64,000 nucleotides of DNA. Origin: Trypanosoma brucei (lineage: Eukaryota). Below, one piece after another: positions 2,312 to 14,727 of the stretch. A model generated the notes under the pieces. It ran no database searches. It saw only the letters and a program-made list of their open reading frames with translations, and was not told where the DNA came from. The stretch lies in assembly GCA_000002445.1 (NCBI GenBank), contig CP000070.1:640001-704000 (forward strand), written 5' to 3'. Both the position numbers and the translations under genes were made by a program. Position 1 is the stretch's first letter; each line of letters opens with the position of its first letter.

Positions 2312-3625
2312 TTAGTTGTACACCATGTATTTGGCTGTTGCGCTGAACTTATGGTGGCCCTTAATCACTTTGTTAACGGCATCCAAGAAGTCTTTCTCGT
2401 TAATTGTCTTGCGGCGCGCCCTGATGGCAAACATGCCTGCTTCCGTACAGACCGACCTCAAATCGGCACCCGTTGCGTTCGGGCACAACCTCGCAATCAG
2501 TTCGAACCTGATCGCCTTCTCACACGAGAGTGACTTGGCGTGGATGCGAAGGATCTTTGTTCGACCCTCCAGATCCGGCAGACCAACCTCAAGTTTGCGG
2601 TCCATGCGACCTGGGCGTGTGAGGGCGGGGTCTAACGTATCAGGACGGTTCGTTGCCATTATAACCTTTATATTACCACGTGAGTCGAAGCCATCCATCT
2701 GGTTCACCATCTCAAGCATCGTTCGCTGAATTTCGTCGTCACCATCACCACCACCTCGAGCACCACCAACAGCATCCACTTCATCAAAGAAAATGATGGC
2801 TGCCTTCTTGGTCCTTGCAAGCTGAAAAATCTCCCGAATCATTCGGGCACCCTCACCAATATAACGCTGAACCAGCTCGGAACCAATCACACGAATAAAA
2901 GTCGCGTCCGTACGGTTGGCGACAGCCTTCGCTAAGAGCGTCTTCCCCGTCCCCGGTGGACCGTAGAGCAACACACCCTTCGGTGGATCTATACCAAGCT
3001 GTGTGTATTTCTCTGGGTTAGTGAGGGGTAATTCCACGACCTCCCGAATGCGGTCGATCTGCTCCTTTGCTCCACCCACATCATTATATGTAACGTCTGG
3101 CTTTTCTTCTACCTGCATCATCGATACAGACGGGTCAACACGAGGTGGGAGGGGTATTTCGATGTGAATGCTGGAATACCCAACTAACACACCCACACGC
3201 ATGGATTCCTCAATGTCCTGACGGGCCACGCGGTTGCCAAGTTTCACCACGTACTTGGCTGTGTCACGAATGGCTACAACGTACTTCGCATCGTCCTGAC
3301 CTTTGTTTATGATACGGGTGCAACGAGCAACATGAAGGGAGTTCTCAGACCGCATCACCTCCTGGTCACTGTTTAGATCCCACTGTACGGGTGGTGCAAG
3401 TCCAAGTTCATTATCCCGTGTGCCAGCGAGTTTGTTAACCGCCTCTGCCTTTGTCTTCACAAACTCCTCCAACTCCTTCACCGTGGCGTGGTATGGTCCC
3501 GAGCCATATAGTTTCAATAGAGCAATGTCATCTTGGTCAAGTGGAATAATCTCCTTTTCTTCTTCATTTTCCCCCTTGATGCGCACAGTGTTCTTGGTTT
3601 GACATCCTCCCTTCTCGCTTGCCAT
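2312..3625 (-). CDS. RPT1: 26S proteasome regulatory (19S) AAA-ATPase subunit RPT1 (PSMC2/S7 orthologue).
   Basis: 437 aa. Walker A 'GPPGTGKT', Walker B 'IIFFDEVDA' and second region of homology are present. The C-terminus '...[12 protein letters not shown]' matches the human PSMC2 tail '...KFSATPRYMTYN'. The N-terminal blocks 'DIALLKLYG', 'LAPPVQWDL' and 'HVARCTRII' align with PSMC2. Confidence 0.9.
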
Positions 3626-5092: not shown

Positions 5093-5641
5093 TCAACTCT
5101 TGGGCACAAACTTTGGTTTACCCGCACTCCACGGAACGTAGCGATGCCTGATCATATGTCGAATACGCTCACCGACTTGTATAATGGTAAGAAAGATAAA
5201 GTACAAGAGAAGGACAGGCCAAAAGACGGGAATGTCCAGAATTCGAAAAAGTGTGAGAAACGTGCAAACCAACACGGACTTCATCATACTACACCACACC
5301 ACAAATTCTTGCATCCGTGGAACGAAAGGGCGAAACTCTTCATCGGGAGATGCGGCAGTGTGAGGGAGCTGCCCCTCACTCCCCAAATCCTCATCTGCGA
5401 GCGGGGTAATAACCTGCACCAGAAGAAACAGTAAATGAATGCCCAACACGTAACTGATCACATAAAACCCACCACAGAAATAGACACGAAGGATATACAG
5501 CGAGAGCATGAAGACGAACATGACCCAACGCAGAGGCCGGTGCGGGACAGTTTGGTCAAGGAGGCGTGACCACGTCATCTTTATATTATCGGTGAATTTG
5601 CGGGCTGCCGACTTCTGTCCAATAATGTCCTTCGACGACAT
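5093..5641 (-). CDS. RER1: RER1 (retention in endoplasmic reticulum 1) family Golgi-to-ER retrieval receptor.
   Basis: 182 aa with four predicted TM helices. It aligns along its length with human RER1: 'YQSWLDKSTPYTAVRW' versus 'WSRLLDQTVPHRPLRW', 'EEFRPF', 'VPVFWPVL..YF' and 'KHMIKYRYIPF' versus 'RHMIRHRYVPW'. Confidence 0.85.
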   Translation of the reverse strand: MSSKDIIGQKSAARKFTDNIKMTWSRLLDQTVPHRPLRWVMFVFMLSLYILRVYFCGGFYVISYVLGIHLLFLLVQVITPLADEDLGSEGQLPHTAASPDEEFRPFVPRMQEFVVWCSMMKSVLVCTFLTLFRILDIPVFWPVLLLYFIFLTIIQVGERIRHMIRHRYVPWSAGKPKFVPKS

Positions 5642-6587: not shown

Positions 6588-7775
6588 TCACGCCACTGCT
6601 TCCTCTTCAAAGACGCGATCCACCTGCAGCGACTGCTTGTCATATTTGTGGTCAGAGCCACCACGGCCAGCTGCATCCAACTCCGCTACCCATCCGGCAT
6701 ACGCATCCGGATGTGCATCACAAAACGGTAAGTAAGGTTTGATGTCTAGAACGGGTGTGCCATGGAGAAGGTCGTGATCAGCAATGTGAACCTCCAAACC
6801 GCGCACATCGACAAGACGCACGCACGAAAGTCCAATAAAGTTCGGGCGGTGGGGACTTCGAGTGGCAAATACACCTCGCAGTTCACTATCACGTGGGGGG
6901 ACCAACATCGTTTTGAAACCAGCAGAGCGCTCCGCGCCCTGACGAGGGCGTTGGCGCTTCGCCCCGACGGCAACTTCTGCCCTATCACCCTTCACACCGC
7001 CCGTATCATCCGCCGCAGTGGCGCTATCTTTTGCCTGCGTGCACTCTTCGTCAACAGGAAGAGCATAGGAAAAAGAGAAAAGCACCCAAATGTATTCGAA
7101 ACCCTTAAGGTCCCTCACCGCATTCTCTAAGCCAACGCGAAGCCTAATAACTGCCGTTTGTGGCATGAAGTTTTCCGTGTGTGGTTGTCGTGGGGCCGAA
7201 ATGTGGGTTCGCATAAGACTGTAGACAATCCCAACACCACATATAGAATATGGTTGAAGTTTCTCTGGACTGAGCACGATACGCACAAGCCGATTTGCGT
7301 GCATTACGGCACGATGGAACGCTGCTTCATATGCATCCACCTTATGTTTTGTGCGCTGTAACCGTTGCTCAATACAATCCGCCACATCTTCTGGTGTGCG
7401 CAGCCGGTCAAAAAAATACACGGCGCTAGCGGGAGCGGTGATACAATCTCGTTTCAACCCGTCATCAGCATCACCTGAGGAAACAAGGGAAGGTGGCGGG
7501 TCAAACAAACGGGCAGTGATGCGATTGGACTTAACATCAGCTACTAACACCTCCCCTGGCCAGTAGGGTAAACCGGGGGGACGAATCCAAACAATATCAT
7601 TTGGAAGGAAATAATGTGGTCGAACACCGAAACGCATAGGCCGTGGTCGCGTCTTACCGCCCTTCAAAACAACATCCTCGCCGTGTGCATCTTCAACTGG
7701 CTCTGGTTGAGAATCGCGATGGGAATCAACTCGGATAAGTGATCTTTCAGTACTCTCCTCCATGCGATCTTGCAC
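6588..7775 (-). CDS. TrmO/TsaA (YaeB, UPF0066)-like tRNA methyltransferase domain protein with an N-terminal PWWP-like motif.
   Basis: 395 aa. The C-terminal half carries TrmO family hallmarks: 'GFEYIWVLFSFSYA', 'GVFATRSPHRPNFIGLSCVRLVDV' and 'LLHGTPVLDIKPYLPF'. N-terminal residues about 55–95, 'NDIVWIRPPGLPYWPGEVLV', resemble the PWWP-domain core '(V/L)VWAK..G.PxWP(A/G).V'. Confidence 0.7.
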   Translation of the reverse strand: MQDRMEESTERSLIRVDSHRDSQPEPVEDAHGEDVVLKGGKTRPRPMRFGVRPHYFLPNDIVWIRPPGLPYWPGEVLVADVKSNRITARLFDPPPSLVSSGDADDGLKRDCITAPASAVYFFDRLRTPEDVADCIEQRLQRTKHKVDAYEAAFHRAVMHANRLVRIVLSPEKLQPYSICGVGIVYSLMRTHISAPRQPHTENFMPQTAVIRLRVGLENAVRDLKGFEYIWVLFSFSYALPVDEECTQAKDSATAADDTGGVKGDRAEVAVGAKRQRPRQGAERSAGFKTMLVPPRDSELRGVFATRSPHRPNFIGLSCVRLVDVRGLEVHIADHDLLHGTPVLDIKPYLPFCDAHPDAYAGWVAELDAAGRGGSDHKYDKQSLQVDRVFEEEAVA

Positions 7776-8305: not shown

Positions 8306-9232
8306 TTACGTCTGCTCGTTTTCAGGAACTAAGTTTGTGATGCGTAACTTTCGCTCCACTGACTCGTCATACGTTCCAATCAAATAACCAGCCTCCTCCT
8401 TCCATGACTCCCCATCCGAGTCAATGAAAAACTTTATGTAGTGAATCTCCCCGAACACAGGGACTTCCTTCAGTAAAGTGAACCCCAGTTTCGATGTGAA
8501 GAGTTGGATGCTAGAGAAGTTGTTCGCACGCACCTTAGCAACAAAACGGGAGGCCCGAAGCTTGTCAAGTGCGTAACTCATAAGAAGTCTCACAGCCTCC
8601 TCACCGAACCCGCGGCGCCGAAAGTTCCCTTCCGCGATCATCGCCTCCACTTCGAAACAACGCCCGCAATCTGCCGCCGTTGGATTTGTTGTGGTGGGTT
8701 CCACACTGCTTATTTTATCACTGCTTAAAATATGAAAAGCAGTGTCAACTGTGCTGTCAGTGCTCCCATCGCCCTCCATTTCACCCTCACCACTGCTAAG
8801 AAGGAAAAGATTGCAGTCACCAATCATAACATACAGCCCCTCCTCACCATCTCGTGTCGTTAATGCTGTCGCCGCGTCCACCGGTATTTTGCTATGCTGA
8901 CTGGCACCACCGGTGGATGAGTGAAGTATTTTCTTACCGCCTTCCACATTTTCCTCTGCTGTGGCACTACACTTCCCACAAACCCCTTCATGAACCTCCA
9001 TCTCACCCTGTCGTACAGAGACTGGGGCAAGAATAATGAACGTAAGTTTGTCCTCTGCGCAGAGCCACTCCTGCTGATTTTCATACTCCTCCTGCAGCGT
9101 CAGTGGTTCACTGGCTGTGAGTTCCAACATTTTGGGGTCGCTCATCCAGCAGTGGTAGCGGGGCACATGGTGGTGCAAGTAAGGCACCAGCCGCAACCGT
9201 TGGCCAGAAACTAACACATTTTTATTGTTCAT
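8306..9232 (-). CDS. GNAT-family N-acetyltransferase, NAT9-like.
   Basis: 308 aa. The N-terminus '[44 protein letters not shown]...KLTFIIL' closely parallels human NAT9 '[44 protein letters not shown]...KCTFIVL'. The C-terminal acetyl-CoA binding region is '...[17 protein letters not shown]'. Confidence 0.8.
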   Translation of the reverse strand: [308 protein letters not shown]

Positions 9233-11107: not shown

Positions 11108-11788
11108 TCACTCCGCGCCTTCCGTAGCATCATCATCATCTGCATCACTGAATGATTGTTCAAGCGACTCTTCAACAACACGCCTCACACGCTCCTCATA
11201 CTTGTCCCTGCTTTGGACATACATACTGGCCGCCTCAGCGTTGGCTGCAGAGTTAGGGTTTGGATCTGAAAGTAGTGAAATAATCATCAAGAGAACCGAC
11301 TCCACGCTCAGTGACGGACACCATTTGTCTTTCAGTGTATCAAGGCAGATGTCCCCATTTCCATACACATTTGGGTGAAATATTTTTGTTGTAAACCGCA
11401 CAGAAGGCGGAGAAAAGGGATACTCAGGGGGGAATTGCAAAAGCAGTTTGAACACACCACCTTCCCACGCAGTCCCATCTGGACCAAGAACGACTGCCTT
11501 CCATTGGAACAAATCGCCCTCCAGCGGCCTCGTCCAAAACTGTTCGCACTTGTTCATATGAATAACCTGCAAGTCGTTCATGAGTCGACGTTGGGCACTG
11601 GCAAAGTTATGTGAATTCTCTACCGTTGCTTGAGGCTGGGGAATAGACCGAACAACCGCCTCCGCCTCCGCCTCCGCCTCCGCCGTCACCTCAATCCCGT
11701 GCGGTGCCGTCTCTTCTCCGTCTATAGCAACCCTGGCAGTTTGCCGAGAAATATTAATGGCTGCTTCATTGGTAGATTCATTATCCAT
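11108..11788 (-). CDS. Ubiquitin-conjugating enzyme E2 with a RAD6/UBE2A-like UBC core and a roughly 75-aa N-terminal extension containing an (EA)n tract.
   Basis: 226 aa. The UBC fold carries the HPN motif and active-site Cys: 'SPPSVRFTTKIFHPNVYGNGDICLDTLKDKWCPSLSVESVLLMIISLLSDPNPNSAANAEAA'. This is close to yeast Rad6 '[27 protein letters not shown]...PNPNSPAN'. The extension includes 'AEAEAEAEA', encoded by the (CCGCCT)n at 11651..11680. Confidence 0.85.
   Translation of the reverse strand: MDNESTNEAAINISRQTARVAIDGEETAPHGIEVTAEAEAEAEAVVRSIPQPQATVENSHNFASAQRRLMNDLQVIHMNKCEQFWTRPLEGDLFQWKAVVLGPDGTAWEGGVFKLLLQFPPEYPFSPPSVRFTTKIFHPNVYGNGDICLDTLKDKWCPSLSVESVLLMIISLLSDPNPNSAANAEAASMYVQSRDKYEERVRRVVEESLEQSFSDADDDDATEGAE
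11651..11680. repeat. Coding (CCGCCT)n hexanucleotide repeat, seen as cgcctc units on the plus strand. It encodes the (EA)n tract of the E2 N-terminal extension.
   Basis: The plus strand reads 'cgcctccgcctccgcctccgcctccgcc'. The minus-strand frame gives 'AEAEAEAEA'. Confidence 0.9.
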
Positions 11789-13350: not shown

Positions 13351-14727
13351 CTATGCGTAATAGTTCAAGCTAGATTTTTTGCGTGCTTGCACAGCCGTAA
13401 CCCCCTCTGCGAAGTCCTCGTGAGCCACATAAACCCGCTCGTTGCGGAGTGCCAACATACCGGCCTCGACACACACAGCTTTGAGTTGTGCCCCATTCAT
13501 ATCCTCCGTCATGCGGGAAATCTCTTCAAAATTCACATCCCCATGAAGTGCCATGCGACGGGAATGAATTTGAAGAATGTGAGCGCGGGCCTCCTCATCC
13601 GGAAGAGTGAACTCCACCTTTCTGTCAATGCGCCCGCTACGCAACAGAGCGGGATCAAGGACATCGATACGATTCGTTGCCGCAATAACCTTCACGTCGT
13701 CGGTGCTTCCAAAGCCATCAAGCAGCGAAAGGAGCTCCAACATCGTGCGCTGCACTTCCCGTGACCCGTGTTTACTTCCCTCGTCCGAACGGCGCGAGCC
13801 GATAGCATCGAGCTCATCAATAAAAATAATAGTTGGTGCTCTCTTCTTCGCAAGAGCAAAGGCGTCTCGAAGGATACGCGCTCCCTCCCCAATGTACATT
13901 TGTACGAGCTGCGGTCCAGCGAGGCGCAAGAAGCAGGCATCAGTTGCGGCTGCACACGCACGGGCCAGCATGGTCTTTCCAGTACCCGGAGAACCATAGA
14001 GCAGCACGCCCTTCGGTGGTTTAATACCAATACGCACATATTTTTCCTTTTCCGTAATGGGAAGCACGACGGCCTCAATCATTTCATTAATCTGTTTATC
14101 GAGTCCTCCCACATCGGTGTACTTTTCTTTGGGTTTCTCTACAATCTCCATCGCCTTCACACGGCTGTCGTACTCCGGTGGAAGTTCTTCGAGTACAAGG
14201 AAGGTATCCTTGTTTACACCAACGAGGTCCTGTGGGGAAAGTTTGTTTGCGTCAACAAGGCCAACAACAGGAAGAAAAACCGTCTGCCGGCTTGATGTCT
14301 TTATTATAGCGCTCTTTTGTGGATGTCGAGACTTTTTCTTTCCAACATTCAACTCCTCCACATCCTGGTCGTCTGCCTCAAGATCCAGTACCTCTGCGAT
14401 GCTGGCAACGAGATATGGAAGCTTGTTGCTATCGCGCACACGTTTCTGGCTCTCTTCCACCTCCCTTCTCAACCCCGCCAATTCCGAAGACATGGTTCGC
14501 TCCTCATTCTTCAACTGATGTATTTCACGCTGAAGCTGCGTTGAGCGGTTGCGAAGCTGCTGGTTGGTGAGTGAGTCGATGTTCTCCAATTCCTCCGGTG
14601 ACAACTGCGCCGCTGCTGACGCGTCACTGGTGCCCCCCCTGTCGCCCTCCGCTGCCCCACCGGTTGCCCTTGCGGTGTCCTGCGTCATCTCGGTAGCTGG
14701 AGGATGAGCAAATATACGCTCCAACAA
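13351..14727 (-). CDS. RPT5: 26S proteasome regulatory (19S) AAA-ATPase subunit RPT5 (PSMC3/S6a orthologue).
   Basis: 458 aa. The C-terminal HbYX tail '...KKSSLNYYA' matches PSMC3 '...KKANLQYYA'. Long colinear blocks align with PSMC3: '[13 protein letters not shown]', '[20 protein letters not shown]', '[28 protein letters not shown]', Walker A 'GSPGTGKT', '[14 protein letters not shown]' and '[14 protein letters not shown]'. Confidence 0.9.

Follow-up and report, generated by a model that had tools for sequence, protein, structure and literature searches.

A divergent PWWP domain joined to a TrmO-type tRNA methyltransferase barrel in Trypanosoma brucei and its relatives among the Euglenozoa

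TrmO is a class VIII beta-barrel methyltransferase that uses S-adenosylmethionine (AdoMet) to convert N6-threonylcarbamoyladenosine at position 37 of tRNA (t6A37) to its N6-methylated form, m6t6A37. Four residues contact AdoMet in the enzyme (Q22, R82, D111 and K122 in Archaeoglobus fulgidus, equivalent to Q25, R92, D125 and K136 in Escherichia coli), and activity of the E. coli protein is abolished by the substitutions R92A and K136A (Kimura et al., PMC4132733). A C-terminal domain carrying the DPRxxY motif, proposed to bind tRNA, is also essential in E. coli, where D194A/R196A abolishes m6t6A; archaea, whose TrmO homologues have no such domain, are not known to contain m6t6A (PMC4132733). 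Among trypanosomatids, T. cruzi tRNA contains m6t6A at a level that, normalised to 5-methyluridine (m5U), exceeds those of HEK293 and E. coli, and a single TrmO homologue has been identified in each of T. cruzi and T. brucei (PMC13210174). The T. brucei orthologue is Tb927.7.2520 (PMC13210174, supplement), which was scored as a loss-of-fitness gene by RNA interference (RNAi) in a RIT-seq screen (PMC13210174). Here we analyse this gene, which lies on the minus strand of a 64,000-nucleotide stretch of T. brucei DNA (contig CP000070.1, positions 640,001 to 704,000; hereafter the window), and show that its 391-amino acid (aa) product joins a PWWP domain to the TrmO barrel, an architecture that we find in kinetoplastids, diplonemids and one euglenid.

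Residues 50–165 of the protein are a genuine but divergent PWWP domain. The original prediction had seen a likeness to the core strand of PWWP domains in the stretch NDIVWIRPPGLPYWPGEVLV (residues 55–74, or 59–78 in a 395-aa form of the protein), and on the T. brucei sequence alone this likeness is marginal: against the Pfam profile PF00855 the protein scores 16.1 bits at full length and 18.1 bits as an N-terminal fragment (E = 0.004–0.017), which is below the 25.6-bit cutoff and therefore insufficient when taken by itself. Orthologues and predicted structure make the case decisive. Individually, 21 of 25 orthologues match PF00855 at E ≤ 0.01 (best 6e-9), and 11 orthologues carry precomputed annotation of both PF00855 and PF01980, the TrmO_N family. 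A family profile covering residues 44–168 and built from 21 orthologues matched 72 chains in the PDB; the 60 listed are all PWWP domains, MSH6 being the best at 7.7e-7, and others come from DNMT3B, NSD2, HDGF, LEDGF, BRPF1, ZMYND11 and the T. brucei TFIIS PWWPs (2m1h, 2nas). Searches of the N-terminal region thus returned PWWP domains and nothing else. In an exhaustive profile search of 1.84 billion representative proteins, ten clusters matched the whole profile at E ≤ 6e-24, nine of them TrmO-domain proteins known from the orthologue search and the tenth (P0122, 247 aa) looking like a fragment of one. After a clear gap, canonical PWWP proteins followed from E = 4e-18 and weaker, and the nine that were scanned all had a strong Pfam PWWP match and no TrmO domain; the PWWP subtype of this family was seen in that search only in fusion with TrmO.

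The homology runs to the last helix of the module, where 'F..AV..AN' aligns with 'FNKAVEYAE' and 'WEKAIEQAN' of canonical domains, and the predicted fold agrees with it. Residues 50–165 were modelled with a predicted local distance difference test score (pLDDT) of about 90 as a five-stranded SH3-like barrel with two helices, that is, as a folded rather than a disordered N-terminal module, and the best matches of this module in structure searches were PWWP domains. In the first half, beta1 (IVWI) leads through the beta1–beta2 arch into the name-giving motif, here P66-Y67-W68-P69 at the start of beta2, and beta3 reads ITARLF; P66, W68 and P69 are invariant in the 25 orthologues, as are D56, V58 and P90. 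Conserved positions in the second half are F118, D119, R134, L135, Y145, A152, A156, N157 and R161. One could suppose that the string 'WIRPPGLPYWP' is fortuitous and that the N-terminus is simply an extension peculiar to this lineage, with no kinship to PWWP, as the sub-threshold Pfam score of the T. brucei sequence would allow. The profile, exhaustive-search and fold evidence, all specific to PWWP, already refute such a chance resemblance, which we regard as extremely improbable, and we hold the identities of both domains, PWWP and TrmO, to be nearly certain.

Residues 177–360 are a TrmO beta-barrel methyltransferase domain that, judged by its AdoMet site, is catalytically intact. The strings on which its recognition was based in the original prediction, 'PHRPNFIGLS' (residues 304–313) and 'VLDIKPY' (338–344), are present, and the signature is far beyond chance: the T. 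brucei protein scores 103.8 bits for PF01980 (E = 8.4e-30; cutoff 26.8 bits), a family that was matched in all 25 orthologues. The best PDB matches by sequence are the TrmO/YaeB proteins of Pseudomonas aeruginosa, Haemophilus influenzae, A. fulgidus and Rhodopseudomonas palustris, and TrmO structures also rank first in Foldseek when the full-length model is the query. In an ungapped alignment to the A. fulgidus structure (2nv4), the four AdoMet contacts map to Q193, R302, D331 and K342, each of which is invariant in the 25 orthologues; K342, which aligns with the lysine that the partner subunit contributes to the inter-subunit AdoMet pocket of the TrmO homodimer, is thus conserved. Column entropy in the catalytic barrel is 0.6–1.1 bits, and conservation within the protein peaks at residues 284–360. 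A 48-residue insert (236–283), predicted to be disordered, splits the Pfam and TIGRFAM matches in two; it is missing from the euglenid Ploeotia and is long in Leishmaniinae.

What the protein has not kept is the second domain of its bacterial and mammalian counterparts. The profile of that domain, PF18389 (TrmO_C), finds no match in the T. brucei protein even at E ≤ 10, the DPRxxY motif occurs in none of the 25 orthologues, whose C-terminal tails are about 45 aa long (mostly 43–69 aa), and alignment with hhalign to bacterial C-terminal domains is confident only over the shared end of the barrel ('TPVLDIKPY...GW'). By these sequence comparisons, the C-terminal DPRxxY domain is absent from euglenozoan TrmO. 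The short tail has a motif of its own, in which D371-H372 (6648–6653, minus strand) are invariant and followed by K or R, with R383 (6615–6617, minus strand) nearly invariant some 11 residues further on; the diplonemid version reads 'DHRWNxxEYTVHR', and the motif has no detectable kinship to the DPRxxY domain. We considered whether 'DH[KR]...R' could be a vestige of TrmO_C and rejected this, the confident part of the hhalign alignment being limited to the barrel end. In the nearest bacterial TrmOs (P0086–P0114, of Polyangium or myxobacterial type), the C-terminal domain reads 'P-x-P-H-x-Y-R-R-I-K' where E. coli has the 'DPRPAYRK' version of the DPRxxY motif, and PF18389 recognises only some of these proteins.

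The fusion is distributed widely within one group of eukaryotes. It occurs in the trypanosomatids Trypanosoma, Leishmania, Leptomonas, Angomonas, Phytomonas and Novymonas, in environmental bodonid-like sequences and the prokinetoplastid Apiculatamorpha, in the diplonemids Diplonema, Rhynchopus and Lacrimia, and in the euglenid Ploeotia vitrea; the N-terminal module is therefore kept not only in other kinetoplastids but across Euglenozoa. A search seeded with the Ploeotia protein yielded no more euglenids and no fusion outside the group, its next relatives being bacterial TrmOs, and the remark in the original prediction that this architecture is unfamiliar from other eukaryotes is borne out, PWWP–TrmO having been found in no group outside Euglenozoa. 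Because the fusion spans kinetoplastids, diplonemids and one euglenid, the architecture is probably ancestral to Euglenozoa, with the euglenid branch represented by a single transcriptome. Column entropy in the PWWP module is 1.6–1.8 bits, against 2.5–2.8 bits in the tails and inserts, a pattern which indicates that the module is under purifying selection.

Several other features of the distribution deserve mention. In Leishmaniinae, Angomonas and Phytomonas the beta3–beta4 loop of the PWWP module is expanded by about 50–70 residues rich in K, E and R (NLKEEHRKHNQSLKKKEARLRKLQKRE...), an expansion not seen in Trypanosoma, diplonemids or Ploeotia. Two TrmO proteins of 244 and 273 aa (P0069 and P0068, respectively) have no PWWP domain and match the Ploeotia protein at E of about 1e-58, compared with about 1e-37 for typical bacterial TrmOs; they share with euglenozoan TrmO the clade-specific 'DHDLLHGTP' and a C-terminal 'PGPDHRW'. 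The P0069 locus (L001:6001-6735) looks bacterial, lying on a 552-kb contig with dense genes on both strands and a DnaA gene near, and no PWWP is encoded upstream of P0069 in any of the six frames. This likeness may reflect horizontal transfer between a bacterium, possibly an endosymbiont, and a euglenozoan. Further fusions of the TrmO barrel were met in prokaryote-like sequences, namely TPR repeats with TrmO in a planctomycete metagenome-assembled genome (P0263) and rhodanese with TrmO (P0072), and the barrel appears to take up partner domains of various kinds.

In PWWP domains that read methyl-lysine (LEDGF, DNMT3A, BRPF1, MSH6), the canonical cage is made of an aromatic residue before the motif proline, the third residue of the motif, and an aromatic residue on beta3. 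In the register that we favour, the corresponding positions in T. brucei are L65, W68 and L86. The second is invariant. Leu occupies the first in T. brucei, as it does in most trypanosomatids and in Ploeotia; the named diplonemids have F or Y there, like T. congolense and T. vivax, and His is found in two environmental sequences as well as in Apiculatamorpha. The third is an invariant Leu (L86) in the alignments to MSH6, NSD2 and two canonical PWWP proteins from the exhaustive search (P0157, P0180), and the predicted topology, with a tight beta2–beta3 hairpin, a long loop, beta4, a turn and beta5, also places L86 there. The cage thus leans towards degenerate, and the T. brucei module, with two of the three canonical aromatics apparently lost, probably does not read methyl-lysine. 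For the link to a chromatin reader proposed in the original prediction, this divides the verdict: a PWWP fold is indeed fused to TrmO, and methyl-lysine reading by it is doubtful because the canonical three-aromatic cage (L65/W68/L86) appears degenerate. Two environmental proteins (P0070 and P0266) make up a sub-branch of the fusion that is divergent and rich in alanine; their motif is degenerate ('DYVFARI..RLPPWPAKV') and both have long C-terminal extensions. In P0070, Tyr replaces Leu at the putative third cage position.

As to function, m6t6A is present in T. cruzi tRNA, a single TrmO homologue has been identified, the gene scores in the fitness screen and the AdoMet site is intact, so the most economical reading is that the protein of Tb927.7.2520 is the trypanosome m6t6A37 methyltransferase. 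The single TrmO orthologue of Euglenozoa has been remodelled, with a PWWP domain at the N-terminus and no DPRxxY domain at the C-terminus, and we suggest that the PWWP module might replace TrmO_C as the accessory module that handles the substrate. It could bind or position the anticodon arm of tRNA, or otherwise support the dimeric barrel, and the conserved helix residues R134, Y145, N157 and R161 would be a candidate contact surface. This assignment of a TrmO_C-type role to the PWWP module comes from its being the only other conserved folded element of the protein, with just a short linker between it and the barrel; we put it forward tentatively, as the likeliest of the roles considered here and yet somewhat short of an even chance.

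A number of observations weigh against the picture drawn so far. On the side of the enzyme, the NCBIfam equivalog model TIGR00104 is narrowly missed (92.0 against a cutoff of 93.25 bits, 1.25 short), probably because of the low-complexity insert at 236–283. The full-length AlphaFold2 model is poor in the TrmO half (predicted template modelling score, pTM, 0.43) and uninformative on how the two domains pack. On the side of the PWWP module, no consistently basic surface was found, the net charge of its core ranging from –7 to +7 across orthologues, and we rejected a uniformly basic surface as support for nucleic acid binding on that ground. Finally, the register at the third cage position is ambiguous, in that an alignment to BRPF1 equates 'VYFFD' with the BRPF1 cage strand and thereby brings a conserved aromatic (F/Y117) into the cage; given this register, and the F or Y at the first position in some lineages, some residual binding of methyl-lysine may occur.

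These points bear directly on what else the PWWP module might do. It could act as a chromatin reader that binds methylated histone lysine, DNA or both and tethers TrmO in the nucleus, for example at tRNA genes or the boundaries of transcription units, coupling t6A methylation to transcription or to nuclear tRNA maturation. The fold and the sequence family are those of chromatin readers, W68 is invariant, an aromatic residue occupies the first cage position in T. congolense, T. vivax and diplonemids, and the alternative register would bring the conserved F/Y117 into the cage strand; there is also a precedent in trypanosomes, the PWWP of TFIIS2-2 binding H4K17me3 and H3K32me3 (PMC8638923). Yet the favoured register, in which five-strand topology and the alignments to MSH6, NSD2, P0157 and P0180 concur, has Leu at the third position throughout, most trypanosomatids and the euglenid have Leu at the first, and TbTFIIS2-1 shows that a trypanosome PWWP can be without histone and DNA binding (PMC8638923). 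We therefore think a chromatin-reading role unlikely. Much the same probability attaches, in our judgement, to a purely structural or docking role, in which the module would bind neither nucleic acid nor histone and would stabilise the TrmO dimer or recruit a partner, for example the machinery that makes t6A, or a tRNA chaperone. The short interdomain linker, conserved helix residues that could pack on the barrel, and a charge that is inconsistent across orthologues are all compatible with this, and PWWP domains have been proposed as mediators of protein–protein interaction (PMC2610381); against it, no partner is known, and it leaves unexplained how the lost function of the DPRxxY domain is supplied.

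Much less probable again is that the PWWP module places the TrmO_C-less enzyme on chromatin or nascent RNA to act on a second, non-tRNA substrate, for instance to introduce N6-methyladenosine (m6A) into the poly(A) tails of mRNA. If a pure m6t6A enzyme were dispensable, the RNAi fitness phenotype could also be taken to fit this reading. Trypanosome mRNA poly(A) tails do carry m6A, for which neither a writer nor any METTL3/14 homologue has come to light (PMC12905994); E. coli TrmO, however, leaves unmodified A37 unmethylated (PMC4132733).

The PWWP domain call is itself not new. A single sentence noted a PWWP domain in Tb927.7.2520 in 2008 (Uzureau et al., PMC2610381), six years before UPF0066 was recognised as TrmO, and the protein was thereby already listed as the third PWWP protein of T. 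brucei (PMC2610381); the SPARC subunit PWWP1 was added in 2022. A 2021 review counts two T. brucei PWWP proteins, TFIIS2-1 and TFIIS2-2 (PMC8638923), and since it omits a protein listed in 2008, inventories of reader domains in trypanosomes are incomplete. In the literature searched we found no description of the PWWP–TrmO combination, and the gene identifier appeared in the text of the 2008 paper alone; papers on UPF0066 in trypanosomatids, on Drosophila dTrmO and on the evolution of N6-methyltransferases say nothing of this architecture. New with respect to the searchable literature, then, are the conservation of the PWWP–TrmO fusion across Euglenozoa, the loss of TrmO_C and the apparently degenerate cage, which together describe a lineage-specific variant of a known enzyme.

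TrmO belongs to a little-studied class of AdoMet-dependent methyltransferases, and here its supposed tRNA-binding domain is missing and a PWWP fold is attached instead. Should the PWWP module handle tRNA, a 'chromatin reader' fold would clearly have been turned to substrate recognition in an RNA enzyme; if the module reads chromatin, modification of the tRNA anticodon loop would be tied to chromatin in organisms with almost no transcriptional control. The product of Tb927.7.2520, which is scored as a fitness gene, is a PWWP protein that has been overlooked in T. brucei, and its architecture is unlike that of the human enzyme.

The features of the gene are collected in Table 1. An open reading frame (ORF) without interruption spans positions 6588–7775 of the window, on the minus strand (the original prediction gave no strand), and offers two starts, a GTG at 7775, which gives 395 codons, and an ATG at 7763, four codons downstream, which gives 391 aa. 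The shorter form matches a database protein of the T. equiperdum/T. brucei group (P0001), annotated as 'UPF0066', from end to end without a difference (100% identity at 100% coverage), and pyrimidine-rich tracts lie upstream of the ATG.

Table 1. Features of the PWWP–TrmO gene, with positions in the window and residue numbers of the 391-aa form.
Feature	Position	Strand	Basis
Complete coding sequence of the PWWP–TrmO protein, 391 aa and stop	6588..7763	-	ORF; 100% identity to P0001
N-terminal tail, residues 1-49, predicted disordered, little conserved	7617..7763	-	pLDDT 36-54; mean column entropy 2.84 bits; 8-37% identity to orthologues
First half of PWWP barrel, residues 50-90	7494..7616	-	Alignment, profile, fold prediction
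Variable beta3-beta4 loop of PWWP, residues 91-104	7452..7493	-	pLDDT dips to ~60; entropy 2.5 bits
PWWP beta4, beta5 ('VYFFD') and two C-terminal helices, residues 105-165	7269..7451	-	Alignment, fold prediction
Short linker from PWWP helices to first TrmO strand, residues 166-176	7236..7268	-	Alignment; P166 nearly invariant
First part of TrmO beta-barrel, residues 177-235, with invariant 'APRQP' including Q193	7059..7235	-	Pfam, PDB alignment
Low-complexity insertion in TrmO barrel, residues 236-283, lineage-variable	6915..7058	-	pLDDT 31-43; entropy 2.5 bits
Second part of TrmO beta-barrel, residues 284-360, with 'PPRD', ATRSPHRPNFIGLS (R302) and DHDLLHGTPVLDIKPY (D331, K342)	6684..6914	-	Pfam, alignment, entropy
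Short C-terminal tail, residues 361-391, of insufficient length for a TrmO_C domain	6591..6683	-	Alignment; no TrmO_C match

Within the first 20 kb of the window, the other large ORFs all lie on the strand of the PWWP–TrmO gene and encode unrelated housekeeping proteins. Two distinct genes for proteasome regulatory AAA-ATPases (Rpt-type), both on the minus strand, stand about 10 kb apart (2312–3625 and 13351–14727), and between them, along with the PWWP–TrmO gene, are Rer1 (5093–5641), a GNAT acetyltransferase with a long insert (8306–9232) and an E2 ubiquitin-conjugating enzyme (11108–11788). We considered these neighbours as a clue to function and rejected them as such, the arrangement being a same-strand trypanosomatid polycistron of unrelated housekeeping genes.

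Among known systems, the closest are the bacterial and mammalian TrmO/TRMO enzymes (E. coli YaeB, human C9orf156), with which the trypanosome protein shares the beta-barrel, the motifs APRQP, TRSPxRPN and DxxxGTPxxDIKPY, and the four AdoMet contacts, and whose expected product, m6t6A, is likewise present in trypanosome tRNA. Unlike them, it has no DPRxxY domain, and it has an N-terminal PWWP and a low-complexity insert in the barrel. Archaeal YaeB homologues (A. fulgidus AF0241) resemble it in having no DPRxxY domain; these archaeal proteins, however, are without any accessory domain in organisms where m6t6A is undetected, whereas trypanosomes have both the PWWP and the modification.

Compared with canonical PWWPs of chromatin proteins (NSD2 PWWP1, BRPF1, MSH6, DNMT3A/B, HDGF/LEDGF), identity is just 13–21%, and the trypanosome domain differs in its P-Y-W-P motif, its long beta3–beta4 loop and its apparently degenerate cage, in which the third position is an invariant Leu and the first is variable; its host, moreover, is an RNA-modification enzyme and not a chromatin enzyme. 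Trypanosomes have PWWP-fold domains also in TFIIS2-1, TFIIS2-2 and the SPARC subunit PWWP1. The last is Tb927.11.13820, and we accordingly rejected an identity of the present protein with it; all three are separate genes and proteins, and they act with RNA polymerase II on chromatin, whereas the PWWP described here is joined to the barrel of a tRNA methyltransferase.

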